Origin: a candidate division WOR-3 bacterium
GTDB taxonomy: Bacteria > Hydrothermota > Hydrothermia > LBFQ01 > DSFT01
Direction of reading: 5' to 3'
Assembly: GCA_039802865.1 (NCBI GenBank)
Contig: JBDRXL010000001.1
Span: 1,723-65,722 of the forward strand
Length of the DNA stretch: 64,000 bases
A program made the translations under genes and the position numbers. The notes beneath the pieces were generated by a model, which saw nothing but the letters and a program-made list of their open reading frames with translations, had not been told where the DNA came from and searched no databases. Numbering within the stretch: position 1 is the stretch's first letter; each line of letters begins with the position of its first letter. Below are positions 9,325 to 43,551 of this stretch, one piece after another.

Positions 9325-10141
9325 TTTTACTATTTAATATCAAAAATAAATTTTCACTTTCAAAATGTAAAATTCTTGAAATATAACCATCTAAAATTTT
9401 ATGAAATTCACCATCTTTATATTCAAATAATCCATTTGAAGTTCCTATAAATAGCTTATCACTTGAATAAATATCAGTTATATAATCTTCTGAAAATTCA
9501 AATACTTTTATTATTCTATCTTGATAAAAAAATCCAACTTTACTTTTTGAAAATGGCTCTGAAAAGCCAATGATTATTGTATCCTTATAAATTGAAATGG
9601 ATTTTATAAAATTAGAAGGTAATTTTCCAAGTATAAAGTGTTTAACTTTTGAATTTTCAATAATATACAATCCATAGCCATTTGTCCCAATAATAAGCTT
9701 GTTTTTATAAAATTTATAAGTTTCTATTTCTGAAATTTTAATAGTATCATTATTTCTAAAAATTCCATTTTTAAACAAATAAAAACCATTTACATAACCT
9801 ATTATTCCATCCTTTTCTTTAAATTGAATAAAACTTTTTCCATCATAAAAATAAATTTTGCTTTTTGAAATTAAAAATAAACTATCATTGCTTATTGAAA
9901 ATTTTCCATAAAAATTATAACTATTTATCTTTCTTAAATTTTTATCATATTCAAATATCCCACAACTTAATGTTAAAATAATGAATTTTTCTTTATAATA
10001 AATCCCATCTACAAAAGAGCTATCACAAGATGAAAATGATGTTAATTTTTTATTTGCAATTTCTTTGGATTTCTGACACGATAGAATTTGCAATAGTCCG
10101 AGATAAATTATCAACATAAAGTAAGTCTTCAAGTGTTTCAT
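9302..10141 (-). CDS. Lipoprotein of unknown function
   Basis: Lipobox LLQILSC. Its 5' end overlaps the 3' end of dxr in another frame, so the true start may be the internal Met near 10117. Confidence 0.45.
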   Translation of the reverse strand: MKHLKTYFMLIIYLGLLQILSCQKSKEIANKKLTSFSSCDSSFVDGIYYKEKFIILTLSCGIFEYDKNLRKINSYNFYGKFSISNDSLFLISKSKIYFYDGKSFIQFKEKDGIIGYVNGFYLFKNGIFRNNDTIKISEIETYKFYKNKLIIGTNGYGLYIIENSKVKHFILGKLPSNFIKSISIYKDTIIIGFSEPFSKSKVGFFYQDRIIKVFEFSEDYITDIYSSDKLFIGTSNGLFEYKDGEFHKILDGYISRILHFESENLFLILNSKIKKLKLS

Positions 10142-11192
10142 CTTTTATATCCTCCTTTTGAATTCTATTTAAAGTTTCTTCAACAACTTTAAAAATATCT
10201 CTAAACTTAATTTTCCCTTCTAAAAAACTATAAACTGCAATTTCATTTGAAGCATTCATAATTGTAGGATAATATGATAATTTTTCTAAACAAAAATAAG
10301 CAATTTTTAAAGATGGGAATTTTTCAAAATCTGGTTTTAAAAATGTTAATTTTTCAAAATCATAGGGATGTGTAATAGTTGATGGTTTTTCAAGTCTTTG
10401 AGGATAACTTAAAGCATAAGCAATAGGTATTCTCATATCTGGAAATCCTAAATGTGCCAATAATGAACCATCTTTTAATTGAACAAATGAATGAATTATA
10501 CTTTGGGGATGAATTACAACATCTATGTTTTTAGTATCAAATAAATAATAGGCTTCAATAATTTCAAGAGCTTTATTAAATAAAGTTGCAGAATCAATAG
10601 TAATTTTCTTACCCATTTTCCATGTAGGATGCTTTAAAGCATCTTCAACACTAACATTTTCCATCTCTTCAATTGTTAAGTTCAAAAATGGACCTCCTGA
10701 TGCAGTTAAAATAATTCTTTCAAATTCTTCTTTATATGGATTTATAAGTTGAAAAATAGCAGAATGTTCAGAATCAACAGGTATTATAATAGAATTTGAA
10801 TTTTTTAAATGATTTTTTACTATTTTTCCAAATGAAACAAGAACTTCCTTATTAGCAAGAGCTATATTTATATTATTTTTTATTGCCTTTAAAACAGGAA
10901 ATATAGAAAATGTTCCAGTCGTAGAAACAAATAATAAATCTATATTCTCTATAAGCTCTAAAATTTCATCCTTTCCTTTATAAATTTTAAATTCCTCACT
11001 CTTAATATCTAAATTCTCATTTATAAATCCAACTTTTTTAACATTAAATTCCTTTGCAATTTCAAATAATTTCTCATAATTTGAATAAGAAACCAAAAAT
11101 TCAATTTTATATAAATTTTTAAACTTTCTAATTACTTCAATTGTTTGAATGCCTATTGAACCAGTAGCTCCAATTATACCTATTCTTTTCAT
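10050..11192 (-). CDS. dxr: 1-deoxy-D-xylulose 5-phosphate reductoisomerase
   Basis: N-terminal NADPH-binding fold IGIIGATGSIG and conserved Dxr core. About 380 aa. Confidence 0.85.
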   Translation of the reverse strand: MKRIGIIGATGSIGIQTIEVIRKFKNLYKIEFLVSYSNYEKLFEIAKEFNVKKVGFINENLDIKSEEFKIYKGKDEILELIENIDLLFVSTTGTFSIFPVLKAIKNNINIALANKEVLVSFGKIVKNHLKNSNSIIIPVDSEHSAIFQLINPYKEEFERIILTASGGPFLNLTIEEMENVSVEDALKHPTWKMGKKITIDSATLFNKALEIIEAYYLFDTKNIDVVIHPQSIIHSFVQLKDGSLLAHLGFPDMRIPIAYALSYPQRLEKPSTITHPYDFEKLTFLKPDFEKFPSLKIAYFCLEKLSYYPTIMNASNEIAVYSFLEGKIKFRDIFKVVEETLNRIQKEDIKDETLEDLLYVDNLSRTIANSIVSEIQRNCK

Positions 11193-11194
11193 AT

Positions 11195-11212
11195 TTTAAA
11201 AAATTTTAAAAG
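11195..11212 (-). promoter_or_regulatory. Promoter-like motif TTTTAAAATTTTTTAAAAT directly upstream of the dxr start
   Basis: A variant of the recurrent palindromic motif, located 2 nt before the start codon. Confidence 0.3.
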
Positions 11213-11918
11213 CATAATAAATACCAATTTTAAATTCCTTTTCATTTATTATAAAATCCCCTCTGATATTATTATAAGATACTGAAAATCCATAAATCAT
11301 ATTATAATCCTTTGTTTTTAAGTTTTGCCATACTCCACCCCTTAACATCAAATATTCCCTATATATAAAAAATTCAACATTACTAAATGCATAAAATGTA
11401 GTATCTATATTTGAAATTCCAAATGTTAAAAATCTATAAATTGTTGGTTCATATGAAATAGCTAAAATTCCATTAAATGTATTTCTATACTCTCCATAAA
11501 ATCTAAAACTTGCTTGCTCAAATGAAGCAATTTTAAAAAATCCCCTTATTTCAAAACTATCTTTAATATATCCAACTGAAAGCTTTATTTGATGTTTATC
11601 GAAAATACTAAAATTAGAGCCAACATTAAAATTAATTTTATCTCCAATATAAAATCCATTAAAACCAACATCAATTTTATTAAATTTATAACCCAAACCC
11701 AATCCATATATTGTATCAAAATAAAAACTATAAACAAAGTTTTCTAAAATGGGGAATGTAAAATAGGCTTTTTTATAAGTTATATCAAATTGCAAAGCAT
11801 TATAAAATAATATTTGAGATGCTGGGAAATAGAACCTTTCACTTTCATCAGATATAATTTTATTAAAAAATCCTAAGCCTTCTTGTCTTATAAGAGTTGA
11901 TATTAAAAAGTGTAGCAT
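11196..11918 (-). CDS. Hypothetical protein, possibly an outer-membrane beta-barrel
   Basis: Alternating aromatic/hydrophobic beta-strand pattern and a C-terminal ...YYAFKIF ending in Phe. No clear signal peptide in the annotated N-terminus. Confidence 0.3.
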   Translation of the reverse strand: MLHFLISTLIRQEGLGFFNKIISDESERFYFPASQILFYNALQFDITYKKAYFTFPILENFVYSFYFDTIYGLGLGYKFNKIDVGFNGFYIGDKINFNVGSNFSIFDKHQIKLSVGYIKDSFEIRGFFKIASFEQASFRFYGEYRNTFNGILAISYEPTIYRFLTFGISNIDTTFYAFSNVEFFIYREYLMLRGGVWQNLKTKDYNMIYGFSVSYNNIRGDFIINEKEFKIGIYYAFKIF

Positions 11919-11959
11919 AGTTGAAAGTTTAAAGGAATAACAATTTAACCATTAAACTT

Positions 11960-12955
11960 TTGGCTATGAAAATAAGAGAACTTGAACTTATCAATTTTAA
12001 AAAATTCTCCCACTTAAAAATTCAATTCTCTGAAAATATCAATTTAATTATAGGTAAAAATAGAGCTGGAAAAACTACTATTATTGAAGCAATTAGTTAT
12101 ATTTCTATTCCTCGCTCTTTTAGAAATGTAAAGGATGAATACTTAATTAAGTTTAATGAGAATGGATTTTCAGTAAAAGCAATATTTTCTAACTTAACAG
12201 AACATTATGTTTTAATAACTTATAAGAAAAATGGATTTAAGATAATAACACTTGACAATAAAAGAGTTAAGACATTTTTAAAGCTTTTTGAAAAATTTCC
12301 AGTTTTAACATTCCATTCAAATAATTACAATATAATAGAACAATCCCCAGAAATAAGAAGAAAATTTTTTGATTGGTTCTTTTCTATATTGGATTATGAA
12401 TATTTTGTAAGTCTTTATAAATATAAGAAAATTTTAGAACAAAAAAATAAAGCCTTAAAACTAAAAAGTGATGTTTTAATATGGAATAGACAATTAAAAG
12501 AAGTTTCAAATTACATAATCAAAAAAAGGGAAGAATACATTGAAAAATTAAATTCTATTATAAAAGAACAAGACCAAAATATAAAAATTGAATATGTAAA
12601 TTCTTTAAAAGATAAAACATTTGAAAGTGTTTTAGAATTTGAGATAAAAAGAGGATTTAGTATAATAGGACCTCACAGAGATGATTATAAGTTTTATTAT
12701 AAAAACTATGATTCAAAGTTTTTTTCATCAGAGGGTGAAAAAAGGAAAATTTTCTTAGAGCTTTCGCTTGCTATGATAAAATTAAGTAAAATTATTAAAA
12801 ATGAAGAACCTATTATAATGTTTGATGACCCATTTAGTGTTTTAGATGAAAATGAACTAATTGATTTATTAAATAAAATTGAAAAATTAAACTTACAAGT
12901 AATAATAACCTCTATAAGACCAATTAAAATTAATGCCCATATTATTAACCTTTAA
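11960..12955 (+). CDS. RecF-family ATPase, copy 1
   Basis: Walker A GKNRAGKTTIIEAISY near the N-terminus, signature-like SEGEKRKIF, and Walker B/D-loop IIMFDDPFSVLDE near the C-terminus. Confidence 0.65.
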   Translation: MAMKIRELELINFKKFSHLKIQFSENINLIIGKNRAGKTTIIEAISYISIPRSFRNVKDEYLIKFNENGFSVKAIFSNLTEHYVLITYKKNGFKIITLDNKRVKTFLKLFEKFPVLTFHSNNYNIIEQSPEIRRKFFDWFFSILDYEYFVSLYKYKKILEQKNKALKLKSDVLIWNRQLKEVSNYIIKKREEYIEKLNSIIKEQDQNIKIEYVNSLKDKTFESVLEFEIKRGFSIIGPHRDDYKFYYKNYDSKFFSSEGEKRKIFLELSLAMIKLSKIIKNEEPIIMFDDPFSVLDENELIDLLNKIEKLNLQVIITSIRPIKINAHIINL

Positions 12956-12963
12956 AATTTTCA
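12949..12963 (+). promoter_or_regulatory. Promoter-like motif CCTTTAAAATTTTCA located 2 nt upstream of the ATG of recF-like copy 2
   Basis: A recurrent motif that overlaps the stop codon of copy 1. Confidence 0.4.
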
Positions 12964-12965
12964 GT

Positions 12966-13970
12966 ATGAGGATAAAAGAGCTTGAGCTTATAAACTTTAA
13001 AAAGTTTAGTTATATAAAGTTAAACTTCCATGATGGAATAAACTTCATTATTGGTAAAAATGGAACTGGAAAGACCACCATTATTGAGGCAATTAGCTAT
13101 ATCTCTACTCCTAAATCTTTTAGGAAAGTAAAAGACGAACACCTAATTAAGTTTAATGAGAATGGATTTTCAATAAAAGCAAAAATCCAAAATCTAATTG
13201 AAAATGACATACTTATAACATATCAAAAAGGAGGATTAAAAACTATAACTTTAAATGGTAAAAAAGTTAAATTGTTTTCACATCTTATTAAAGAATTTCC
13301 AATTTTAACATTTTACACAAATAACTATACTTTAATTGACCAAACTCCAAGTATGAGAAGAAAATTTTTTGATTGGTTCTTCTCTACTCTAAACTATGAA
13401 TATTATTCAAATCTTTATAAATATAGAAAGATATTATTGCAAAAAAATGAAGCATTAAAACAAAAAGGTGATGTATCCGTCTGGAATAAACAATTAGAAC
13501 AATATGCACAATACCTTATAAAAATGCGTGAAGAATATATTAAAAAGTTAAATAGCCTTATAAATGAAATAGATAAGGATGTTAAAATGGATTATTACAA
13601 TTCCTTAAAAGATAAATCTTTTGATGAATTTTTAGAAGTGGAGATGGAAAAGGGATTTAGTATAGTAGGTCCTCATAGAGATGATTATAATTTCTATTAT
13701 AAGGAGCATAATGCGAAAATTTTTGCTTCAGAAGGTGAAAGAAGAAAAATTTTCCTTGATCTTGCAATTGCTATGATTAAATTAATTAAATCTACAAAAG
13801 ATATAGAACCTATTGTAATTTTTGATGATCCTTTTAATGTTTTAGATGAATATAAACTTCAATCATTTTTTGATAGTGTTAAAGATATGAACTTACAATT
13901 TATAATTACATCTGTAAAACCTGTATCACATTTAAAAGGCCATGTTATAAATTTGAATACTTATATGTAA
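12966..13970 (+). CDS. RecF-family ATPase, copy 2 (tandem paralog, about 50% identical to copy 1)
   Basis: Same motif set as copy 1 (GKNGTGKTTIIEAISY, SEGERRKIF, IVIFDDPFNVLDE). Start chosen at the ATG 12966 (MRIKELELINF). Confidence 0.65.
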   Translation: MRIKELELINFKKFSYIKLNFHDGINFIIGKNGTGKTTIIEAISYISTPKSFRKVKDEHLIKFNENGFSIKAKIQNLIENDILITYQKGGLKTITLNGKKVKLFSHLIKEFPILTFYTNNYTLIDQTPSMRRKFFDWFFSTLNYEYYSNLYKYRKILLQKNEALKQKGDVSVWNKQLEQYAQYLIKMREEYIKKLNSLINEIDKDVKMDYYNSLKDKSFDEFLEVEMEKGFSIVGPHRDDYNFYYKEHNAKIFASEGERRKIFLDLAIAMIKLIKSTKDIEPIVIFDDPFNVLDEYKLQSFFDSVKDMNLQFIITSVKPVSHLKGHVINLNTYM

Positions 13971-13971
13971 T

Positions 13972-15156
13972 TTAGAATTCTAAATTCATTGACTTTAAAA
14001 CTAAATTCATCGTTTCTTCTGCCCTATTTCTCGCTTTTTGTGAGCCTTCATTTAATATATTCAAAATCTCATCTTCTTTAATTTTTTCTCTTTTTTCTCT
14101 TATTGGTTCTAAGAATTTATCCATCTTATTAAAAAGCTTTAATTTACAATCCACGCATCCAAGTTTTCCACTCTTACAATCATTATAAATTTCTTCTCTT
14201 TCTTCCTTATTGAAAATTTTTTGTAAATAATAAATTGGACAAATATCTGGTCTTCCTGGATCATTTTTTCTAATTTTTTGAGGGTCAGTATAGTATTTTC
14301 TTAATTTCTCTTTTATTGTATTACTATCATCAGAAATATAAATAGCATTATTATAGCTTTTACTCATTTTCCTTCCATCTATACCAAGAACTTTTGGAAA
14401 TTCCGTTAATAAAGGTTCTGGAATTGGGAAAATTTCTCCAAATATATTATTGAACTTTCTTGCCAATTCTCTTGTAAGTTCTAAATGTGATAATTGATCT
14501 TGACCAATTGGAACATAATTTGCTCTATAAATTAAAATATCTGAGCTTTGTAAAACTGGATAACCAAGAAATCCATAACTTATTTCTGCATTAACAGGTA
14601 TTTCTTCTAATTCTATTGAAGTTTTCATAAATTCCCTTAATAACTCTAAAAAATCTCCCTTTAATTTCCTATATATTTGATCTTTTATCTTCTGCTTATC
14701 TACTTCAATATCAAATGTTTTCATTATAAAATCCACATCACTTCTAATAATATGTTCAACTCTTTCTTCATCTATATTTAGATGAAATTTTGTTTCTATT
14801 CCCTTTTTTCTTAACTCTTCAACTTTCTCTTTATATGTAGGAACTCTAAATAATCTACTTATTGAGACTAACATTGATAAAATGATATGAAATTCTGAAT
14901 GTTGTTTAACTTTTGATTGAACAAATAAAACACTTTTCTTGGGGTCAATTCCTACACTTAACCAATCTTTTAAAACTTCAATAGTATTAGATTTTATTTC
15001 AAAAGCTATTTTTATATCATCTGTTAGAGCATGATAATCTGCAATGAAAAAATAACAATTATATTTATTTTGTAATTCTTTCCAATTTTCTAAAACACCT
15101 ACTAAATGTCCAATATGTAATTTACCTGTTGGGCGCATTCCAGAAAGCACTATCAT
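13972..15156 (-). CDS. trpS: Tryptophanyl-tRNA synthetase with a C-terminal Cys4 motif (C-x20-C-x6-C-x2-C)
   Basis: Class I HIGH-type motif GKLHIGH and KMSKS. Cys cluster ICP...[11 protein letters not shown]. Confidence 0.85.
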
Positions 15157-16022
15157 ATTATATTTGTGCTCCCATCTAAAGAAATTATAATATTATCAAT
15201 TAATCTTGTTTTTCCAAAGAAAACCGCTAAGGCTATTAAAACTTCCCCTTTAATTTCGCTTATTGGTTTTAAATTTTTTGTATCAACAATTTGAATATAT
15301 TGAATTTTAGCAAGTGGTGCATTTTCTATTATAAATTTTTCCATCTCACTTATTATTTTATTACTATCTCTTTCACCATTTTCAATTAAATTTTTAGCAA
15401 GCATTAGAGATTTATATAAAACTGTTGCTTGTTTTCTTTCTTCTGGATTTAAATATACATTTCTTGAAGACATTGCAAGTCCATCAGATTCTCTAATAGT
15501 TGGTCCTGGAATAATTGTAATATCTAAATTTAAATCTCTTACCATTCTTTTAATTATGAAATATTGTTGTGCATCTTTTAAACCAAATACTGCAATATGA
15601 GGTTTTACAATATTAAATAATTTAAGAACAACTGTTGCAACTCCCCTAAAATGCCCTGGTCTAAACTTTCCACAAAGCTCTTCATCCAAATTTTTCACTT
15701 CAACATATGTTGAAAAATCTTCTAAATACATTTCTTTTTCATCAGGAACAAATACAATATCAACATTCTCCTTTTCACATAATTTTAAATCTCTTTCCAA
15801 ATCTCTTGGATATTCCTTAAAATCTTCATTAGGTCCAAATTGTAATGGATTTACAAAAATAGAAACTACTAAAATATGTGATTTTTTTCGTGCTATTCTA
15901 AATAATGATAAATGGCCTTCATGTAAATAACCCATAGTAGGAACAAATCCTATGGTTTTACCTTCCCTTCTATAAACTTCTGACAAATCCATCATTTCAC
16001 CTATGCTTTTAATAACTTTCAT
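15153..16022 (-). CDS. panC: Pantoate--beta-alanine ligase
   Basis: Motif [15 protein letters not shown] and typical ~285-aa length. Stop overlaps the trpS start. Confidence 0.85.
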
Positions 16023-17119
16023 ATCTCAAGTTCATAAGAATTTATAAATTCTATATTATTGTTCAAAAGTATGTTTTCTAATTGTGGTGGAATAAGATAA
16101 CTAATCAAAATTCTAAATTGCCTCCCACCTATCTCATTACACTTCTCTATAAATTTATTAACTTCTTTTTGACTTAATCTCGTTTTCGCTTCACCTATAA
16201 TTATAAATTCTTCTCCATCTCTTTTGCCCTTTCCATATATATTCACCTCTATATATTTTTTTCCTAATTTTATATATCCTCTTTTAAGTGGTTCAATTAT
16301 CTCAATGTTATATTTTTCTTTTAGAAGTTTTGGCAAATATCTGATTGCTCTATCTTCAAGTAAATATCCAAAATTATCACTTAATGTTTCAAGTTTTTTC
16401 CTTGTTTGTTTATTAACTTTTTCTGACCTTTCAAAAGCTTTTGTTAAGTTGTTTATTCTTTCAGTTAGTTCAATTAAAGCCTTTTCTAATCTATCTATCC
16501 TTTCACCTTGTTCTTTTGTTATTTGTCTTAGTTCATTTACTGCTTGTCTTAATTCACTTACTGCTTGTGTTAATTCCATTACCGCTTTTTCTAATTTTTC
16601 TATTCTTTCTCCATGTTCTTTTGTTATTTCTCTTAATTCATTTACAGACTTTGTTAAACTTTCAATAGCTTGCCATATTCTTTGAAATTCTTCATTCATT
16701 CTTTGCTCCATTCTATCCATTCTTTGATTGCTTTCCTTAATAGCTTGTCTTAATTCATTTACTGCATGTGTTAGCTCAATTATTTTCTCACTATGCTCTT
16801 TACTTACTTCTCTTAATTCACTAACTGCTTGTGCTAAAACATTTACTCTTTCAGTTAATTCAATCAAAGCTTTCTCTAATATATCTATCCTTTCACCCTG
16901 CTCCTTACTTACTTTGGTTAGCTCAATTAAGGCCTTTTCTAACCTGTCAAACCTTTCATTATGAGCTCTATTTCCCTCCCTAATTATATCCCATAGCTCT
17001 TGTATCATTCTCCTATTTTGCTCGATCTCCTCCTTTATTATGATTTCTACAATTTCTCTTATGGAATCTCTATATTCTTCTGGAAGTTTTTCTAATATCT
17101 TGTTTATTTTTTCTATCAT
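16019..17119 (-). CDS. Coiled-coil protein with 35-aa heptad repeats and a C-terminal PD-(D/E)XK-like domain (resembles the DUF3782-type family)
   Basis: Repeats of [32 protein letters not shown]. C-terminal ...LEDRAIRYL...IEVNIYGK...IIIGEAKTR. Recurrent promoter motif directly upstream. Confidence 0.55.
16430..16960. repeat. Imperfect ~105-bp tandem repeats in coding DNA (five or more units)
   Basis: Visible nucleotide-level repetition (ttgttcttttgttatttgtcttagttcatttactgcttgtcttaattcacttactgcttgtg...) matching the 35-aa protein repeats. Confidence 0.5.
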
Positions 17120-17136: not shown

Positions 17137-19403
17137 TTTATTTTCCAATTATAAATAGCATTTGAGACTACAAAGATATCAGAAAGAGCCATTGCAAAAG
17201 CAGAATATATTGGATGAAAAGAAATATAAAAACCTGCAAAAGGTATAAGAACGATATTATAGAAAAATGTCCAAAATAAATTCCATCTCATTTTACTACT
17301 TGCAATTTTAGAAATTTCAAAAGCTTTCAAAATTCCATCAATATCACTCTTAATAAGAATAATATCTCCACTCTCTTTTACAATATCAAGAGCATTTGAA
17401 ACTGCAATTGATAAATCTGCTTTTGAAAGAACAATAGCATCATTAATTCCATCTCCTATATATAACACTTTATGCCCCTTTTCCTTTAAATTTTCTACAA
17501 ATTTTAATTTATCAAATGGACTTAAATTTGAATAAAATTCTTCTATTCCAAGTTCATTACAAACCTTTTTAACATTCTCATAACTATCACCACTTAAAAC
17601 AATTATTTTATAATTCTTCTTTTTAAGAATATCTATTAACTTTTTAGCATTTTCTTTTATTACATCTTCAAAAACAAGCTCAAAAGCTCCATATCCTTCA
17701 ATATAATAACCAATATCAAAATTAACATTTAAATGTTCTCTTTCAAATAATTTCCTATTTCCTACAATTACTTTTCTATTATTCACAATTCCTCTAATCC
17801 CCTCCCCTCTTATATATTCAAATTCTTTAACCTCGTAAAATTCTCCATTATAATTATTCAAAATTGCTTTTGAGATAGGATGCTCATTCAATTTTTCAAT
17901 TGATGCTAAATAAATTAAATGCTCATAAGGTATATTACTTTTTAATGTTAATTTTCCTTCTGTAAGTGTTCCTGTTTTATCAAATATAATAATATCAATT
18001 TTATTAGCTCTTTCAAGAGAAGCGGAATTTTTAATAATTATACCATTTTTAAGAGCTTTATTAATACTAACTGCTATAACAAGTGGAATAGCAATTCCAA
18101 TTGCACAAGGACAAGCAATAACAAGAACAGATATTAATTTCAAAAGTGCAATCTCAAAATTAGCTTTTATAAACCAAAATATAAATACAATTATTGAAAA
18201 TATAACAACAGTTGGAGTAAATATCGCTGATACTCTATCCGCTAAACTTTCAAGAACTGATTTTTCCCTTTGAGCATACCTTGAAATTTTTAAAATCTCA
18301 TTAAATAATGTATTACTTCCAACTCTTAATGCTTTTACTTTCAAATATCCTTCTTTAAGAATAGTTCCTTGAAAAACTTCATCATTTTTAGATTTTTTAA
18401 CAGGTTTAAACTCTCCACTAAAAGCACTTTCATCAACATAACCTTCTCCCTCAATTATAACCCCATCAGCAGGAACTAAAAATCCTTCCTTTACTATAAA
18501 AATATCTCCTTCTTTTAAATCACTAATATCAATTTCTACTTCCTTATTATTATCCAAAATAATAACTTTTTTAGGCTTTTGAACATATAAATTTCTTAAA
18601 TTTTCAAAAACTTTAAATTTTGCCCTTTCTTCAAAAAATTTTCCAATTAAAATAACACTTATTATAATACCACTTGTTGCAAAATAAACGTGGTGAAAAG
18701 TTTGTGGATTTATAAAATGTAAAAATGAACCAAAGAATGCAGAAAGGGTTCCAAGGGATATTAATACATTCATATCTAAATTTTTAGCTTTTAAAGATTT
18801 TATAGCATTTTTTATAAAGTATAAACCAAAATAAAATTGAATAGGTATTGTAAGAATAAGTTGAATAATAGGATGTAAAGGCATTGAAAATTCATGTAAT
18901 AAGAGTGGAATTGAAAGAATTGAAGAAAATAAAGCCCTTCTTTTTATATCATTTAACTCTTTCTTCCTTTCTTCATATTCAATATCAAATGCACTTTTAC
19001 CCTCACTTAATAAATGAGCCTTATATCCAAGTTCTCTAATATCCCTTAAAATATCATTAATATCTTTTAATGGAGAAATTTCTAACTTTAAAACTTTGCT
19101 TTCAAAATCATAATAATAAGATAAAATAGAACTTTCATTTATTAAATAATTCTCTAAATTTTTATCAAACATTGGAATATAAATTTCAACATTTTTCGTT
19201 AAAATTTCATATCCTATGCTTGATAATTCTTGCTTTGCCTTTTTGAAATTAAAATTCTTTTCAAACTCAACAATTAGCAATTCACTTGCTAAATCCACAT
19301 CTACAAACTTCACATCTTCATAACTTTTAATTACATTTTTAACTGTTCTTGCACAATTTGAACAAGTCATACCTCTTACAGGAAGTTTTATTATTTTTGT
19401 CAT
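17130..19403 (-). CDS. copA: Copper/heavy-metal translocating P1B-type ATPase
   Basis: N-terminal HMA motif GMTCSNCA, TM CPC motif ACPCAIG, phosphorylation motif DKTGTLT, and GDGINDA. Confidence 0.85.
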   Translation of the reverse strand: MTKIIKLPVRGMTCSNCARTVKNVIKSYEDVKFVDVDLASELLIVEFEKNFNFKKAKQELSSIGYEILTKNVEIYIPMFDKNLENYLINESSILSYYYDFESKVLKLEISPLKDINDILRDIRELGYKAHLLSEGKSAFDIEYEERKKELNDIKRRALFSSILSIPLLLHEFSMPLHPIIQLILTIPIQFYFGLYFIKNAIKSLKAKNLDMNVLISLGTLSAFFGSFLHFINPQTFHHVYFATSGIIISVILIGKFFEERAKFKVFENLRNLYVQKPKKVIILDNNKEVEIDISDLKEGDIFIVKEGFLVPADGVIIEGEGYVDESAFSGEFKPVKKSKNDEVFQGTILKEGYLKVKALRVGSNTLFNEILKISRYAQREKSVLESLADRVSAIFTPTVVIFSIIVFIFWFIKANFEIALLKLISVLVIACPCAIGIAIPLVIAVSINKALKNGIIIKNSASLERANKIDIIIFDKTGTLTEGKLTLKSNIPYEHLIYLASIEKLNEHPISKAILNNYNGEFYEVKEFEYIRGEGIRGIVNNRKVIVGNRKLFEREHLNVNFDIGYYIEGYGAFELVFEDVIKENAKKLIDILKKKNYKIIVLSGDSYENVKKVCNELGIEEFYSNLSPFDKLKFVENLKEKGHKVLYIGDGINDAIVLSKADLSIAVSNALDIVKESGDIILIKSDIDGILKAFEISKIASSKMRWNLFWTFFYNIVLIPFAGFYISFHPIYSAFAMALSDIFVVSNAIYNWKIKL

Positions 19404-19423
19404 AGCTTTAAAATTTTAAAGTT
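19404..19423. promoter_or_regulatory. Perfect 16-bp palindrome CTTTAAAATTTTAAAG between the divergent copA and 19422 genes, placed 2-4 nt from both start codons
   Basis: Sequence is cat AGCTTTAAAATTTTAAAGTT g ATG. One palindrome serves both strands. Confidence 0.5.
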
Positions 19424-19862
19424 GATGAAATTTTATTTTTTATCTTTTCTGATATTTACAATTCTTGTTTTGATATTTGACTTTCTTTACTTTATTTTAT
19501 TTAAGAAATTTAATATACTTATAATGATTTCAATAGCATTAGCTGTTGTTTCAACAATTGTTGTTTCCATTCTTTATAGAAAATATAGAATCCTTTCAGA
19601 TTTTGATATAAAAATTGATAATGAAGGGATATTTTTTAAAATTCCAAAGCCCATTGCAGAAGAACTTGAACTTGAAGTTCAAAAGGGTAAATATCTATGG
19701 AGACAAATAAAAAATGTCCAATATGATAGTGAAAATCATATAATTTATTTAGTTTTAATAAGCAAAATTAAAATCCCTATTCCCTTAGTAGGTTTAAGAA
19801 ATGAGCAAATTGAAGAAATTTTATCTCAAATTAGTAAATATACAAGTGTTGAGGTAGTGTGA
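19422..19862 (+). CDS. Membrane protein of unknown function
   Basis: Two N-terminal TM helices followed by a soluble C-terminal domain. Lies upstream of nusB. Confidence 0.4.
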   Translation: MMKFYFLSFLIFTILVLIFDFLYFILFKKFNILIMISIALAVVSTIVVSILYRKYRILSDFDIKIDNEGIFFKIPKPIAEELELEVQKGKYLWRQIKNVQYDSENHIIYLVLISKIKIPIPLVGLRNEQIEEILSQISKYTSVEVV

Positions 19863-19865
19863 ATT

Positions 19866-20357
19866 ATGATTTATCCTTTTCATGGCAGAAGACTTGCGAG
19901 GGCTATTGTCGTTGAAACAATATATAATGCAGAATTATTGAATTTAAATATAGATGAAGTATTTGAAAGTATTTCAAGGATGAAAAAAGAATATTTTATG
20001 TCTATAATAAATGAAATTAAGAAAGAAAAAATAAGGGAAAAATTTATAAAAGACTTGGAGAATTGGGATGAAATTTTAAATTTTTCAAAAGCAATTATAA
20101 ATAGCTATAAAGAAAATAAGGAAAAAATTGAGATGATTTTAAGAGAAAATATTAAAGGAGATTGGGATTATGAAAGGATATTTTTGTTGGAAAAGTCAAT
20201 TTTAAAAACCGCTGTCTCTGAACTATTAGCATTAAATACCCCTTATAAAGTAATAATTTCAGAAGCTTTAAGTATAGGAGATTATTTCGTTTCCCAGGAG
20301 GCAGTTAAACTTATAAATGCAATATTAGATGGAATTGTAAAAGGTTTAAAGGTTTGA
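19866..20357 (+). CDS. nusB: Transcription antitermination factor NusB-like
   Basis: N-terminal RRLARAIVVETIYNAEL and C-terminal ERIFLLEKSILKTAVSELL...ISEALSIGDYF match the NusB pattern. Confidence 0.65.
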   Translation: MIYPFHGRRLARAIVVETIYNAELLNLNIDEVFESISRMKKEYFMSIINEIKKEKIREKFIKDLENWDEILNFSKAIINSYKENKEKIEMILRENIKGDWDYERIFLLEKSILKTAVSELLALNTPYKVIISEALSIGDYFVSQEAVKLINAILDGIVKGLKV

Positions 20358-39238: not shown

Positions 39239-39832
39239 ATGACTGTTCAAGTGCCTGAAATTAAATTGAATGAAAATGTTAAATTAAATAGTAAAGAAAC
39301 CGCTTTAATAATAGTGGATATGCAAAATGATTTTTGTGATGAGAAAGGAAGTTTATTTGTTCCAGAAAGTAGAAAAACAATAGAACCCATTCAAAAACTA
39401 ATAGAAAAAGCAAGAGAAAAGAATGTGAAAATTTTTTATACTCAAGACACTCACAAAAAAGATGATAAAGAATTTGAAATATGGCCTGTTCATGTAGTAG
39501 AAGGAACATGGGGTTGGGAAATTATACCCGAACTTAAACCTACTGAAAATGATATTATTATAAGGAAATTAAGATATGATGGATTTTATGGAACAAGCCT
39601 AGATCATTATTTAAAAATCTACAATATAAGGAACTTGGTAATAGTTGGAACAGTTGCTAATATATGTGTTCTCCATACTGCTGGAAGTGCTGCTTTAAGA
39701 TGGTATAATATAATTGTTCCTATTGATGGGATTTCTGCTTTAAATGAATTTGATTATTATATTGCTTTAAGGCAAATAGACTTTTTATATAAAGGTATTT
39801 TAACGAAAGTTGAATTTATAGAATTTGTATGA
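39239..39832 (+). CDS. Isochorismatase-family cysteine hydrolase (nicotinamidase-like)
   Basis: N-terminal [12 protein letters not shown], catalytic Cys context GTVANICV and a conserved Lys. Confidence 0.65.
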
Positions 39833-41688
39833 TAAAAGAATATTTTGATGTAATTGTAATAGGTGGAGGACATGCAGGTATTGAAGCAAGTTTAGCAAGT
39901 GCAAGAATGGGTTTGAAAACTCTTCTATTAACACTTGATATTGATAAAATTGGTCAGATGTCTTGTAATCCAGCTATGGGGGGAATTGCAAAAGCACATT
40001 TAATTAAAGAAATTGATGCACTTGGTGGAGAGATAGCAGTGGCAACAGATGAATGCGCAATATCTACAAAAATGCTAAATGTGAGAAAAGGTCCAGCAGT
40101 ATGGTCTTTAAGAGCACAAGTTGATAGAAAAGCTTATAGAGAAAGGATGAAAAGAGTTGTAATGAATACAAAGAATTTAAGTGTATTTCAAGAGGAAGTT
40201 GTAAAATTAATAATTGATGGATATAAGGCAAAAGGTGTAATTACATCACTTGGATATGAATTTTATGCAAAAGCAATTGTTCTAACAACTGGGACATTTC
40301 TTGGAGGGAAAATTTATATAGGATATAATACTAAAATGGCTGGAAGGCTTGGAGAATCCCCATCTATTGAACTATCTAAGCAATTAAGAGAAATTTTTAA
40401 TATATCAAGATTAAAAACAGGAACATCTCCAAGAATAGATGGGAGAACTATTGATTTTTCAAAATTAAAAATTGATGAACCTGATAATCCACCAAGAGGT
40501 TTTTCATTTAGAAATCCTTACTTAAACATAGAACAATTACCTTGCTATGTAACTTATTCAAATGAAAGAACACATGAAATAGTTATGAAAAATTTACATT
40601 TAGCTCCTATGTATAATGGATTAATAAAAAGTAAAGGTCCAAGATATTGTCCAAGTTTTGAAACAAAAGTTGTAGAATTCTTTAAAGAAGTCAAAAGTCA
40701 TAGAATTGTATTAGAACCAGATGGAAGAGACACAAATGAGTGGTATTTAAATGGCTTTTCAACATCATTACCATTAGAAGTTCAATATGAAATGTTAAGA
40801 ACACTTCCTGGACTTGAAAATGCAGTAATATTAAGACCAGGATATGCAGTAGAATATGATTATGTAGATCCAAGAGAATTATATCCTTGGCTTGAAACAA
40901 AGAAAATAGAAAATCTATTTTTAGCTGGACAAATAAATGGAACAACGGGTTATGAAGAAGCAGCAGCACAAGGTATAATAGCGGGTATTAATGCAGGATT
41001 AAGGGCTATGAATAAAGAACCATTTTTCCTTACAAGACAAGATGGTTATATTGGAGTCTTAATTGATGATTTAATTACAAAAGGAGCAGATGAGCCATAT
41101 AGAATGCTAACCGCAAGAAATGAATATAGATTAATTCATAGAATGGATAATGCTTATGATAGACTTTCAGAATATGGATATAAACTTGGACTTTTAAAAT
41201 ATGAAGATTATAAAATTATAAAAGAAAAAATTGATATTGTGAGAGAGGAAATTGAAAGATTAAAAAATACAAGAATTAAAGCAAGTGAAATAAATCCAAA
41301 ACTTAAAGAGTTAAATAGCTCAGAAGTTAAAGAAAGCATTACCTTAGCAGATCTTTTAAAAAGAGTTGAAATTAAATATGAGCACTTATTAAAGTGGGGA
41401 TATGGTAAAATTGAAGATAAATTATTGATTGAAAAAATTGAAATTGAAATTAAATATGAAGGATATATTAAAAATCTCTTACAAGAAGCAGAAAAATTGA
41501 GGAGAATAGAAAAAGTAATAATTCCAGATGAAATAGATTATTATGCAATAGTTAATGTATCAAACGAAGGAAAAGATAAACTTAACAAATATAAACCAAA
41601 AACAATTGGGCAAGCACTAAGAATTCCAGGCATAAAACCTACGGATGTTATAAATCTTTATTACTATTTACAAAGGAGTAAAAATTGA
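39829..41688 (+). CDS. mnmG: tRNA uridine 5-carboxymethylaminomethyl modification enzyme MnmG (GidA)
   Basis: FAD-binding motif [14 protein letters not shown] and the full-length conserved core. About 619 aa. Confidence 0.9.
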
Positions 41689-41769: not shown

Positions 41770-42202
41770 ATGGATTATACTGTTTCTGAAGTATTTAAGG
41801 AAGTGTTTGAGGCCTTATATGGCAACAAACTCGGTAATCTATATAGTAATGCACGAAATGATATTACTACTATATTTGGGGCTCACAGAACAAAGAATAA
41901 AACAGAAAGTTACTATTGACAAAGAAATTATTTATAAAAGAATAAGTGGTCAAGAGATAGTTTCTTATGGAGTATTTGTTGTTGATAATGAAAAAAGGGG
42001 ATCGAACTTCTTTCTTTTAGAAGAAATTGATGAAGATTTTTATGTAAATCCAAGAAACACAATGTTCCAGGTAAAATATAATCCTTTCCTTCGAAAACCC
42101 ATTGACTACTATTCATTCATAATGAACTTAACCAATTCGGTTATCAAGTCCCTTACAAAGAGTTTAAATACAACTAAAACCGAAATTGCTTATCTAACAT
42201 GA
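41770..42202 (+). pseudogene. Disrupted gene remnant upstream of the second DNA MTase. Its N-terminal part (41770-41919, MDYTVSEVFKEVFEALYGNKLGNLYSNARND...) and C-terminal part (about 41920-42202) lie in different frames.
   Basis: The globular-looking N-terminal segment ends at a stop and the rest continues in the +1 frame. The frame switch falls near an A-rich run around 41900-41925. The ORF-track 145-aa GTG-start ORF has a junk-like hydrophobic N-terminus. Confidence 0.3.
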
Positions 42203-43551
42203 GAAAGAATAACATTTTAAATGAAAAAATTGGCTTTGTTCAAACCCCATCAGAAATAGCTAAGTTAATGATTATGTTATCAACAGTTGATAAAAATTCT
42301 AATATATTAGATACGGGTTGTGGAGAAGGTATTTTTTTGCAAGAGCTTGAAAAAGAAGGATATATAAATTGCTATGGTATAGAAATAAATAAAGAGCTTT
42401 ATGAATTATGCAAAAAGAAATTCAAAGATAAATATAAGATAATTTTGGGAGATTTCTTAACTTATAGTTTTAATGAGAAATTTGATTTAATTATAGGAAA
42501 TCCGCCATACATTCATTTTAATCAAATACCTACACAAATTCGAAACAATGTAAGAAAAATTATCAAAACAAGCGAAGGAGATATTTATTATGCTTTTATT
42601 ATAAGGTCAATACAACTTTTAAAAAATGGTGGGGAACTTATATACATTGTCCCCTACTCCTTTTTTTATAACACTTATGCAAAAATAGTAAGGGAATTTA
42701 TACTTAATTATGGAAAAATAGAGATAATTATTGATTTAGATGAAGCAAGAATTTTTAATAATGAAAATCCAGAAACAATTATATTTAAATTTAAAAAGGG
42801 AAAATTCAACTTAAATCAAGAGAAAATAATCCTTTTAAGAATAAAGAGGAAAAATTCAAAACCTTATGAAATATACATAAAAGCAAAAAATTCATTAGAA
42901 ACAAAAAATTCAAACGATTTATTTGAATATAACATAATCCCCCATTATACAAATACAAATCAATGGTCTTCACTATTTTTTTATATTCCTAATTTCAAAT
43001 ATATTCTATTAAAAGAAATTGCAAAAGTTGGTGTAGGAATGGTATCAGGATTTGATAAAGCATTTATAATACAAGATGATAGTAAATTTACTTTTGAAGA
43101 AGGAAAACTTATAAAAAAGTTTGTGAAAGCAAAACATTGTAAGAGATATGTTGTAGATGGATATACAAAATATATTCTTATTGATGATAGCATTAAAAGT
43201 GAAGAATATTTAAAAGAAAATTATCCAAACATTTATTTAAAACTTGAAGTTTATAAGGAAGAAATGAAAAATAGATATTTGGTAAATAAGATGTGGTTTA
43301 ATTGGCAAGCTTTAAGAAACTATGAATTTTTATTAAAAAATTATAATAAAAAACGCATTTATGTGCCCACCTTAGATAGACATAATTATAATAGATTTAG
43401 CTTAGGAGAAGAAGGATTATTACCAGCAGGTGATGTGCTATTTATACAACCATTTGATGAAGAAAATTTATATTTTTTACTTGGTTATCTTAATAGCTCT
43501 TTTTTAGAAAATACTATCTTGAAAATGGAGGAAGAAGAGGAGGACGCATAG
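42199..43551 (+). CDS. Gamma-class (TaqI/Eco57I-like) N6-adenine DNA methyltransferase. Its C-terminus is truncated by a frameshift at a T6 tract (43500-43505); the lost C-terminal ~60 aa continues in the +1 frame to 43733.
   Basis: Motifs FVQTPSEIAKLM, LDTGCGEGIF and IIGNPPYI. In the +1 frame, YLENGGRRGGRIVFTQKFLENAKIPIFENKL... matches the conserved C-terminal end of this MTase family. Confidence 0.6.
   Translation: MRKNNILNEKIGFVQTPSEIAKLMIMLSTVDKNSNILDTGCGEGIFLQELEKEGYINCYGIEINKELYELCKKKFKDKYKIILGDFLTYSFNEKFDLIIGNPPYIHFNQIPTQIRNNVRKIIKTSEGDIYYAFIIRSIQLLKNGGELIYIVPYSFFYNTYAKIVREFILNYGKIEIIIDLDEARIFNNENPETIIFKFKKGKFNLNQEKIILLRIKRKNSKPYEIYIKAKNSLETKNSNDLFEYNIIPHYTNTNQWSSLFFYIPNFKYILLKEIAKVGVGMVSGFDKAFIIQDDSKFTFEEGKLIKKFVKAKHCKRYVVDGYTKYILIDDSIKSEEYLKENYPNIYLKLEVYKEEMKNRYLVNKMWFNWQALRNYEFLLKNYNKKRIYVPTLDRHNYNRFSLGEEGLLPAGDVLFIQPFDEENLYFLLGYLNSSFLENTILKMEEEEEDA

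Follow-up and report, generated by a model that had tools for sequence, protein, structure and literature searches.

The recF locus

The window analysed here, a stretch of 64,000 nucleotides from a candidate division WOR-3 bacterium, carries two adjacent recF genes on the same strand, referred to below as copy 1 and copy 2 (Table 1). The lineage (WOR-3 / Hydrothermia) is uncultured and heat-loving. An earlier note on this DNA had described them as ORFs of 331 and 345 aa, which is what mechanical ORF calling returns at both coordinates. Translation most likely begins at ATG 11966 and ATG 12966, in agreement with all homologues and with the NCBI gene calls; with these starts, the two genes do not overlap and lie 10 nt apart. 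Their proteins share 62% identity and 83% positives (E = 4e-155), above the roughly 50% identity first estimated, and their DNA is just 73% identical.

As the earlier note had it, dxr and trpS flank the pair, except that a 240-aa ORF intervenes on the dxr side. Apart from that ORF, which has no family hit, the neighbours (dxr, trpS and panC) are housekeeping genes. The dnaA-dnaN-gyrB linkage, which is common but not defining for RecF, is absent at the pair: the larger window ORFs that were scanned are all unrelated to dnaA, dnaN and gyrB. Neither recR nor recO was found among the subset of window ORFs scanned. No further recF occurs within the 64-kb window, where tblastn with both copies returned just the two genes. 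A replication origin near the pair was also considered and rejected, as the GC-skew minimum at ~19.5 kb corresponds to a switch in gene strand and DnaA-box matches are unclustered there, with no clear enrichment.

No terminator-like site was found between copy 1 and copy 2. Given this and the 10-nt spacer, co-transcription of the two genes appears most likely. The separate promoter that had been proposed for copy 2 did not hold up: 15 promoter-like sites were counted in 11700-14200, against 19.6 +/- 3.8 in shuffles of the same sequence (25% G+C).

Table 1. Features of the tandem recF locus (positions within the window).
Feature	Position	Strand	Description
dxr	10050-11192	-	upstream of the recF pair
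240-aa ORF	11196-11918	-	between dxr and copy 1
Leader of copy 1	11944..11965	+	stretch of the repeat unit that precedes the ATG
recF copy 1	11966..12955	+	329 aa plus stop; upstream copy, ancestral 5' side retained
Walker A, copy 1	12053..12076	+	GKNRAGKT, aa 30-37; codon 33 (12062-12064, AGA) is Arg
Signature (S) motif, copy 1	12728..12736	+	S255-E-G257
Walker B and D-loop, copy 1	12812..12847	+	IIMFDDPFSVLD, aa 283-294
Probable duplication junction and 10-nt spacer	12944..12965	+	last codons and TAA of copy 1 resemble the copy 1 leader 1000 bp upstream
recF copy 2	12966..13970	+	334 aa plus stop; downstream copy, ancestral 3' end and trpS-adjacent position retained
Walker A, copy 2	13053..13076	+	GKNGTGKT, canonical; GGA (Gly) at the Arg33 column
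Copy 2 divergence cluster	13206..13325	+	residues about 81-120
Copy 2 frameshift allele site	13475..13476	+	GTATCC to GTATTCC (+T); 174-aa and 166-aa pieces
Signature (S) motif, copy 2	13728..13736	+	S255-E-G257
Walker B and D-loop, copy 2	13812..13847	+	IVIFDDPFNVLD, aa 283-294
trpS	13972-15156	-	downstream of copy 2

Both genes encode RecF

Both copies are orthodox RecF, the RecFOR recombination-mediator ATPase, and the family assignment made earlier is borne out by profile and structure matches alike. The RecF equivalog model TIGR00611 (cut-off 172) is passed by copy 1 with 268.4 bits over profile positions 1-339 and by copy 2 with 276.9 bits over positions 1-338. For both, the best sequence matches in the PDB are solved RecF structures (5Z67, with E = 2e-40 for copy 1 and 5e-34 for copy 2). 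An AF2 model of copy 1 (pLDDT 94.2, pTM 0.90) retrieved only RecF among its top 11 Foldseek matches in the PDB (TM 0.80-0.92); it reaches TM 0.90 against RecF, compared with about 0.5-0.6 against Rad50 and SMC heads. The fold, modelled for copy 1 and expected for copy 2 at 62% identity, is a two-lobed ABC-type head without a coiled-coil insertion. Both genes already carry the RecF name in public records.

The motifs quoted in the earlier note (GKNxxGKTTIIEAISY, SEGExRKIF and DDPFxVLDE) are all found in both copies. Within the Walker A pattern GxxxxGK[ST], both have G30, N32, G35, K36 and T37, including the catalytic Lys. S255 and G257 of the signature, invariant in 118-120 homologues, are retained by both, as are D287 and D294 of the Walker B and D-loop region, which are invariant in the homologue alignments. 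Widely conserved residues are nearly all kept in the two proteins, and the departures are common to close relatives, with I184L in copy 2 as the sole exception. With the Walker A Lys, the S-x-G signature, Walker B and the D-loop in place, both products are predicted to be intact RecF ATPases, an activity expected from family membership. The position occupied by Arg33 in copy 1 is Gly in 55, Ala in 50, Ser in 12 and Thr in 1 of 118 homologues, and Arg in none. This residue could weaken the ATP site of copy 1, and it does not accord with a simple picture of copy 1 as the working gene.

Distribution of the pair and loci of relatives

At least 11 independent assemblies, made from different samples and all of one WOR-3 / Hydrothermia species, contain the pair in identical or almost identical form. 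An assembly artefact or chimera is ruled out by this recurrence and by a DNA identity between the copies of just 73%. Every related locus (L001-L003, L012-L016 and L018-L023, about a dozen) holds a single recF, and within the sampling the duplication is limited to this one WOR-3 / Candidatus Hydrothermia species. No recF paralogues or tandem recF genes were found by full-text literature search.

The earlier note had started from the premise that recF sits beside dnaN and had regarded the location of the pair as unusual. Gene calls were read for six loci of relatives (L003, L012/L013, L014/L015 and L016), and in none of them is the single recF adjacent to dnaN, so a recF away from dnaN is normal for this lineage. 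The premise thus fails here, the promoter motif is at chance level, and the view of the pair as something unusual is unsupported. For annotation purposes, a recF gene away from dnaN is no anomaly in WOR-3 / Hydrothermia.

The nearest relative, L003 (TrpS 79% and PanC 91% identical), shares the layout of recF followed by convergent trpS and panC. At the protein level, copy 1 is 63-68% and copy 2 is 55-62% identical to the single RecF of relatives.

Traces of the duplication

The two copies are offset by 1000 bp. At the end of copy 1, the junction TTAACCTTTAAAATTTT (within 12944..12965) resembles the leader TTAACCATTAAACTTTT at 11944-11960, and the copy 1 stop TAA at 12953-12955 corresponds to a TAA at 11953-11955. 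Identity at the 1000-bp offset is 7-8 out of 10 from 11950 on and 1-5 out of 10 farther upstream. In this A+T-rich region, the resemblance is suggestive of a duplication junction, short of proof. At the other end of the pair, the copy 2 C-terminus (..NLNTYM) resembles ..DLNSLH of the homologue P0002; copy 2, not copy 1, is the one with the ancestral C-terminus and, as in L003, the place beside trpS. The G+C content and GC3 of both copies match the host.

Synonymous codons place copy 1 and copy 2 together as the closest pair (95% bootstrap), with similar GC3 in all compared genes. At conserved amino acids, the two share a codon against P0002 40 times; the counts for the remaining pairings are 26 and 19. 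Their pS of 0.537 is the lowest of all pairs, at synonymous sites that are near saturation and that gene conversion between tandem copies could homogenise. The copies also share five departures from clade-invariant residues (V170, D240, E281, I283 and H325). The protein phylogeny conflicts with the synonymous signal on their sister status: 71% of bootstrap replicates of the neighbour-joining tree put copy 2 outside a group of copy 1 and all relatives, and only 5% recover the two as sisters. Quartet parsimony gives a star (8, 7 and 8 sites). The timing of the duplication was therefore read from synonymous sites. Unequal crossing-over, with P0002 as a recombinant of both copies, was considered and rejected, as sliding windows contain no switch from a copy 1-like 5' part to a copy 2-like 3' part; what they reveal is limited to the local divergence of copy 2 at aa 81-120.

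The junction signature, the flanks common to L003 and the shared synonymous codons point to a duplication in situ, later than the split from this nearest relative.

Uneven divergence and strain variation

Between the copies, dN/dS is 0.265 at a dS of ~0.9, a value that speaks for maintenance of both by selection. Divergence is uneven. Copy 2 has 30 unique substitutions and copy 1 has 16 (chi-square p = 0.039), and departures from clade-invariant residues number 24 and 12, respectively (p = 0.046). The divergence of copy 2 is concentrated in one segment (Table 1): over the 40-aa windows that begin at columns 81 and 101 of the alignment, which three gap columns shift by about 3 residues, identity to P0002 is 76-88% for copy 1 and 59-62% for copy 2, and aa 97-117 hold 7 of the 24 copy 2 departures from clade-invariant residues.

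Variation among strains was drawn from cluster members, since the loci retrieved by exact protein look-up differ at just 0-1 positions in 2.7 kb, too little for a polymorphism dN/dS. The copy 1 protein is invariant, with one sequence on 13 contigs and 0 variants; copy 2 has three amino-acid variants and one frameshift allele. Taken alone, this contrast of 0 versus 4 is not significant (p = 0.125). The frameshift allele (+T) occurs in L024 (GCA_039802805.1) and L025 (GCA_039802875.1), which are otherwise identical across 2005 nt, and the same truncated product is encoded in the Logan assembly P0127; as two MAGs with adjacent accessions and one short Logan contig, these may represent a single population. 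Copy 1 is unchanged in the strains with the frameshift.

The earlier suggestion of one genuine recF and one diverged paralogue is roughly what emerges, with about twice as many lineage-specific substitutions in copy 2, which is also polymorphic and, in some strains, frameshifted.

Origin and role of the second copy

We consider it probable that the pair arose by tandem duplication, in situ, of the ordinary recombination-mediator gene recF, confined as sampled to one species. A unit of ~1000 bp, from ~22 nt of leader through all but the last ~5 codons, would have been copied head to tail. The upstream side of copy 1 would then be the ancestral one and its stop codon a new one, acquired at the junction, and the ancestral 3' end beside trpS would have stayed with copy 2. 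Judging from their family, both products would form ATP-dependent dimers that bind dsDNA at gap junctions and, together with RecR and RecO, load RecA. Divergence after duplication was asymmetric, with copy 1 staying near its orthologues and copy 2 evolving about twice as fast, mainly at residues ~81-120. Because of this faster evolution, the polymorphisms and the frameshift in some strains, we read copy 2 as a probably partly redundant, dispensable paralogue under weaker, yet purifying, selection. Mixed dimers of copy 1 and copy 2 may form, but are probably not required. The earlier note had itself named a lineage-specific duplication within orthodox RecF, with no other recF present, as the outcome that would speak against a new system. 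Such a duplication was found, and the 64-kb window contains no other recF; the pair is a routine lineage-specific duplication and no new system.

An obligate 1:1 heterodimer of copy 1 and copy 2, replacing the RecF homodimer and having unequal ATP sites (one with the Arg33 P-loop, one with a canonical P-loop), seems unlikely to us. RecF forms an ATP-bridged head-to-head dimer in which ATP connects domain I of one subunit with domain II of its partner (PMC12192639), which is compatible with such a pairing. Roughly equal expression is plausible for genes 10 nt apart without a terminator, both copies have stayed intact over a dS of about 0.9, and copy 1 stands alone in having Arg where the P-loops of 118 homologues have G, A, S or T. 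However, natural strains carry a frameshifted copy 2 beside an unchanged copy 1, and the amino-acid polymorphisms are in copy 2, with none in copy 1. The signature, Walker B and D-loop are clade-canonical in both, so that no composite site is clearly degenerate bar Arg33, and the divergent residues ~81-120 of copy 2 lie apart in sequence from the motifs at aa 30-37, 255-257 and 287-294. Equally doubtful is the specific arrangement in which the Arg33 P-loop of one subunit (RecF1) would face the copy 2 signature of the other (RecF2), and in which residues ~81-120 of copy 2 would give the two halves of the dimer differing partners, for example RecR on just one face. If it existed, such a RecF heterodimer would be the first in bacteria, a small natural parallel to SMC1/SMC3 or to Rad50-like asymmetric heads, and a simple system for studying how work is shared between the ATP sites of a RecF dimer. 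The heterodimeric SMC-like clamp loader put forward in the earlier note finds no backing: RecF does not belong to the clamp loaders, Pfam and NCBIfam matches include no AAA+ clamp-loader family, and nothing indicates an obligate heterodimer.

It is quite improbable that copy 2 is a xenologue that came from a related Hydrothermia lineage outside the sampling and inserted beside the resident recF, or that the duplication pre-dates the radiation of the clade and copy 2 was lost elsewhere. Either history would agree with the basal position of copy 2 in the protein tree (71% bootstrap), with copy 2 being no farther than copy 1 from the outgroup clade at 40% identity, and with a database that contains no protein more than 63% but less than 100% identical to copy 2. 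Against both stand the 1000-bp offset with a junction that reuses the copy 1 leader, and the ancestral C-terminus and trpS-adjacent position, as in L003, which belong to copy 2 and not to copy 1. The synonymous codons that pair the copies at similar GC3 (40 versus 26 and 19; 95% bootstrap), the five shared departures and a base composition equal to that of the host argue in the same direction. That copy 2 is a functionless duplicate decaying into a pseudogene, as its faster rate, population polymorphisms and frameshift allele might suggest, is highly improbable, since the window and most assemblies have an unbroken copy 2 frame, its invariant catalytic residues are all kept, and a dN/dS of 0.265 over a dS of ~0.9 is far too constrained for copy 2 to have been neutral since duplication.

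The tandem duplication leaves a tidy, young-to-middle-aged pair of paralogues of a DNA-repair gene that normally occurs as a single copy. Its duplication junction can still be read, its members have diverged unevenly and a loss-of-function allele is segregating; for the discovery of new systems it matters little.

Comparison with known systems

Stand-alone SMC_N / AAA_15 / AAA_21 ATPases, anti-phage ones among them (PtuA, the retron Eco8 effector, Gabija- and OLD-type proteins), resemble the pair in the N-terminal P-loop region of ~45 residues, for example PtuA over aa 3-46 with E = 5e-13. The two copies score 49 and 44 bits for PtuA (cut-off 500) and 14 and 22 bits for the Eco8 effector (cut-off 250). 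Matches to these and to the other defence ATPases considered (MADS3 and AAA_15 / AAA_21 OLD-like proteins) are below the cut-offs; no nuclease or partner gene lies nearby, and the neighbours are housekeeping genes. SMC, Rad50 and RecN were rejected on size (329-334 aa only) and on matches limited to ~45-100 N-terminal residues, with 46 bits for Rad50 against a cut-off of 700. For an AAA+ clamp loader of the DnaX / HolB type, no such family is among the Pfam/NCBIfam matches, and the fold is an ABC-type head.

Heterodimeric ATPases that arose by duplication include eukaryotic SMC1/SMC3 and ABC exporters with one degenerate site. Like these, the recF pair consists of paralogous ABC-type heads that could pair over two composite ATP sites, and one copy has a non-canonical P-loop residue. 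Unlike these, one of the two is frameshifted in natural strains, and signature, Walker B and D-loop are undegenerate in both.

The closest known system is RecF itself (TIGR00611; 5Z67-69, 2O5V, 5ZWU and 8A93). The pair differs from it in being two tandem copies instead of one, in Arg33 in the P-loop of copy 1, and in having SEGE(K/R)RK for the commoner SxGQxR and VLD for ELD in the D-loop, the latter two as in all close relatives of the pair. It is also unlinked to dnaA-dnaN-gyrB, as are the single recF genes examined in relatives. It agrees with RecF in a full-length model match above the trusted cut-off, in the two-lobed ABC-type head (copy 1 model), in its residues at Walker A, signature, Walker B and D-loop, and in size, its 329-334 aa being close to the 340-370 aa of the family.

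Two orthodox recF genes in tandem

The window, with a G+C content of ~26%, has as its nearest database matches MAGs labelled candidate division WOR-3 or Candidatus Hydrothermia. Two adjacent plus-strand ORFs lie where the earlier note had placed them, and the three motifs that it cited (Walker A, signature and D-loop) were found in both. Their start codons were assigned based on the M-x-[IL]-K N-terminus of all homologues and the NCBI gene call of 334 aa for copy 2, the downstream gene. The copies are separated by a 10 nt spacer, are offset by exactly 1000 bp and share 62% protein identity (E = 4e-155) and 73% DNA identity. The gene order is dxr, a 240-aa ORF, recF, recF and convergent trpS and panC.

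Coordinates of the recF pair and of other features in the window and in loci of relatives
Feature	Sequence	Position	Strand	Product
240-aa ORF	window	11196-11918	-	240 aa
recF copy 1	window	11966-12955	+	329 aa
recF copy 2	window	12966-13970	+	334 aa
trpS	window	13972-15156	-	~400 aa
Coiled-coil protein gene	window	16019-17119	-	366 aa
Shadow ORFs of the coiled-coil protein gene	window	16224-16964	+	
mnmG/gidA	window	39829-41688		
Eco57I-like / N6_Mtase DNA methyltransferase	window	42199-43551	+	
ParB_N-domain gene, divergent from recF	L012	5110-5889		
ParB_N-domain gene, divergent from recF	L016	5195-5971		

Both genes are orthodox recF genes. They match TIGR00611, the RecF equivalog, along the whole model with 268 (copy 1) and 277 bits (copy 2; cut-off 172 bits), whereas all SMC-, Rad50-, RecN- and defence-type models align with the N-terminal P-loop region only and score far under their own cut-offs. 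The top solved-structure matches by sequence are, for both copies, the RecF proteins of Caldanaerobacter, Deinococcus and Thermus. The AlphaFold model of copy 1 (pLDDT 94.2) superposes on RecF with a TM of 0.90; its best 11 Foldseek matches are RecF throughout, followed by Rad50 and SMC heads (TM ~0.55). Both copies retain G30, N32, G35, K36, T37, E41, R132, the GPHRD block, S255, G257, D287, D294 and Q311. Exceptions among widely conserved RecF residues are K12 and V292, common to close relatives, and I184L in copy 2. They form no new ATPase family, nor are they the clamp loader that the earlier note had suggested.

Across the clade (an alignment of close relatives plus both copies), the signature region reads SEGE(K/R)RK where RecF usually has SxGQxR, and the D-loop reads VLD, not ELD; the missing Glu is present in 81% of RecF homologues.

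Distribution and gene context in relatives

The tandem arrangement was found in separate samples among ENA, NCBI, JGI and Logan assemblies (loci L004-L011, L017, L024 and L025), which vary by 0-1 nucleotides across 2.7 kb. All other related loci (L001-L003, L012-L016 and L018-L023) carry one recF within the 4-10 kb of flank covered per locus. This single recF shares 55-63% identity with copy 2, and that of the outgroup clade 40%. By the earlier note's own reckoning, a lineage-specific duplication within orthodox RecF, with no further recF present, would make the pair an ordinary duplication rather than a new system: orthodox identity and lineage restriction were both found, and a search of the 64-kb window gave these two recF genes only.

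None of the six relatives' loci with called genes that were read has dnaN beside recF. The gene context that had seemed unusual is thus the norm of this lineage, as judged from these six loci. In L012 and L016, recF is divergent from an adjoining ParB_N-domain gene. The 240-aa ORF occupies that position in the window; neither Pfam nor NCBIfam gives a match for it, and tblastn against the loci of relatives finds no counterpart.

Origin and timing of the duplication

L003, the locus of the nearest relative (TrpS 79% and PanC 91% identical), has a single recF followed by convergent trpS and panC, the same as copy 2. Copy 2 also retains the ancestral C-terminus (..NLNTYM versus ..DLNSLH in P0002, the RecF of a close relative). 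The copy 1 protein stops five residues sooner; its TAA is located in sequence that resembles the copy 1 leader, which lies exactly 1000 bp upstream (TTAACCTTTAAAATTTT versus TTAACCATTAAACTTTT). A ~1000-bp unit duplicated head-to-tail would leave such a pattern, but with its A+T-rich sequence the junction is no more than suggestive. Both copies are host-like in base composition and GC3.

Protein-level trees are ambiguous on timing. In neighbour joining, 71% of bootstraps place copy 2 outside copy 1 and all relatives and 5% unite the copies as sisters; quartet parsimony gives a star (8, 7 and 8 supporting sites). The signal from synonymous sites is clearer. At the 170 codons encoding the same amino acid in copy 1, copy 2 and P0002, the copies share a codon against P0002 in 40 cases, versus 26 and 19 for the other two pairings, and synonymous codons unite the copies as closest pair in 95% of bootstraps. 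GC3 is alike in all genes compared, and pS between the copies (0.537) is the lowest among all pairs. Based on this synonymous-site signal, we conclude that the duplication probably took place once the L003 lineage had split off; if so, the protein of copy 2 would have evolved faster, which would account for its basal position in the protein tree. The same signal could instead stem from gene conversion between the tandem copies.

Unequal evolution of the copies

The dN/dS between the copies is 0.265 at a dS of ~0.9 (orthologue pairs are lower, 0.135-0.217), far below 1, so both are maintained as proteins. Copy 2 is the faster-evolving, with 30 unique substitutions versus 16 in copy 1 (p = 0.039) and 24 versus 12 departures from clade-invariant residues (p = 0.046). 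Its changes cluster at residues ~81-120, where identity to P0002 is 59-62%, versus 76-88% for copy 1. Strains show the same asymmetry: 13 contigs carry one and the same copy 1 protein, whereas copy 2 has the variants T127I, T127N and G169D. In addition, a copy 2 allele with a +T frameshift at 13475/13476 (GTATCC to GTATTCC), yielding 174- and 166-aa pieces, is present in two MAGs from NCBI and in one assembly from Logan.

Codon 127 of copy 2 (13344-13346), with its two population variants, is flanked by the clade-invariant Q126 and P128; Thr127 itself is specific to copy 2, the clade having Ser. Copy 1, conversely, has Arg33 in its P-loop (AGA, 12062-12064; GGA in copy 2), constant on all 13 contigs with this protein, at a position limited to G, A, S or T in 118 RecF homologues.

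Expression and proposed function

There is no terminator-like site between the copies. Promoter-like hexamers in the region are no more frequent than expected by chance (15 versus 19.6 +/- 3.8 in shuffles), and the separate promoter motif that the earlier note ascribed to copy 2 does not count as evidence. Co-transcription is the simplest inference.

RecF is a monomer that dimerises on ATP, the nucleotide bridging domain I of one subunit and domain II of its partner; the dimer sits on dsDNA and one face touches the RecR ring (2025 review, PMC12192639). Both copies would act likewise, with ATP dimerisation, dsDNA seating and RecR contact. Copy 1 may be the principal gene, under constraint, with copy 2 as a losable, partly redundant paralogue, and mixed dimers could form. 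An obligate asymmetric heterodimer is improbable. Close linkage, the long retention of both copies and the P-loop Arg33 of copy 1 would agree with it. The natural frameshift allele of copy 2 argues against it, as does the fact that signature, Walker B and D-loop are canonical in either copy.

Other features of the window

The first two thirds of the 366-aa protein are a coiled coil of repeated ERI(D/E)xLEKA(L/V)(I/M)ELT units, and its C-terminus is weakly DUF8196-like. The trpS gene is of the long type. Its product matches TIGR00233 best at aa 188-390 and the 400-position NF008922 at aa 3-122, a pattern that implies a putative ~65-residue insertion in the catalytic domain. GC skew changes sign at ~19400-19870 and ~44000, each with a gene-strand switch; neither point has a DnaA-box cluster.

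Comparison with known systems

NCBI names both genes RecF, under consecutive accessions (MEO0143635.1 and MEO0143636.1), and full-text literature searches turned up no account of recF paralogues in tandem. The pair is an ordinary duplication, specific to this lineage, of a repair gene that is usually present once.
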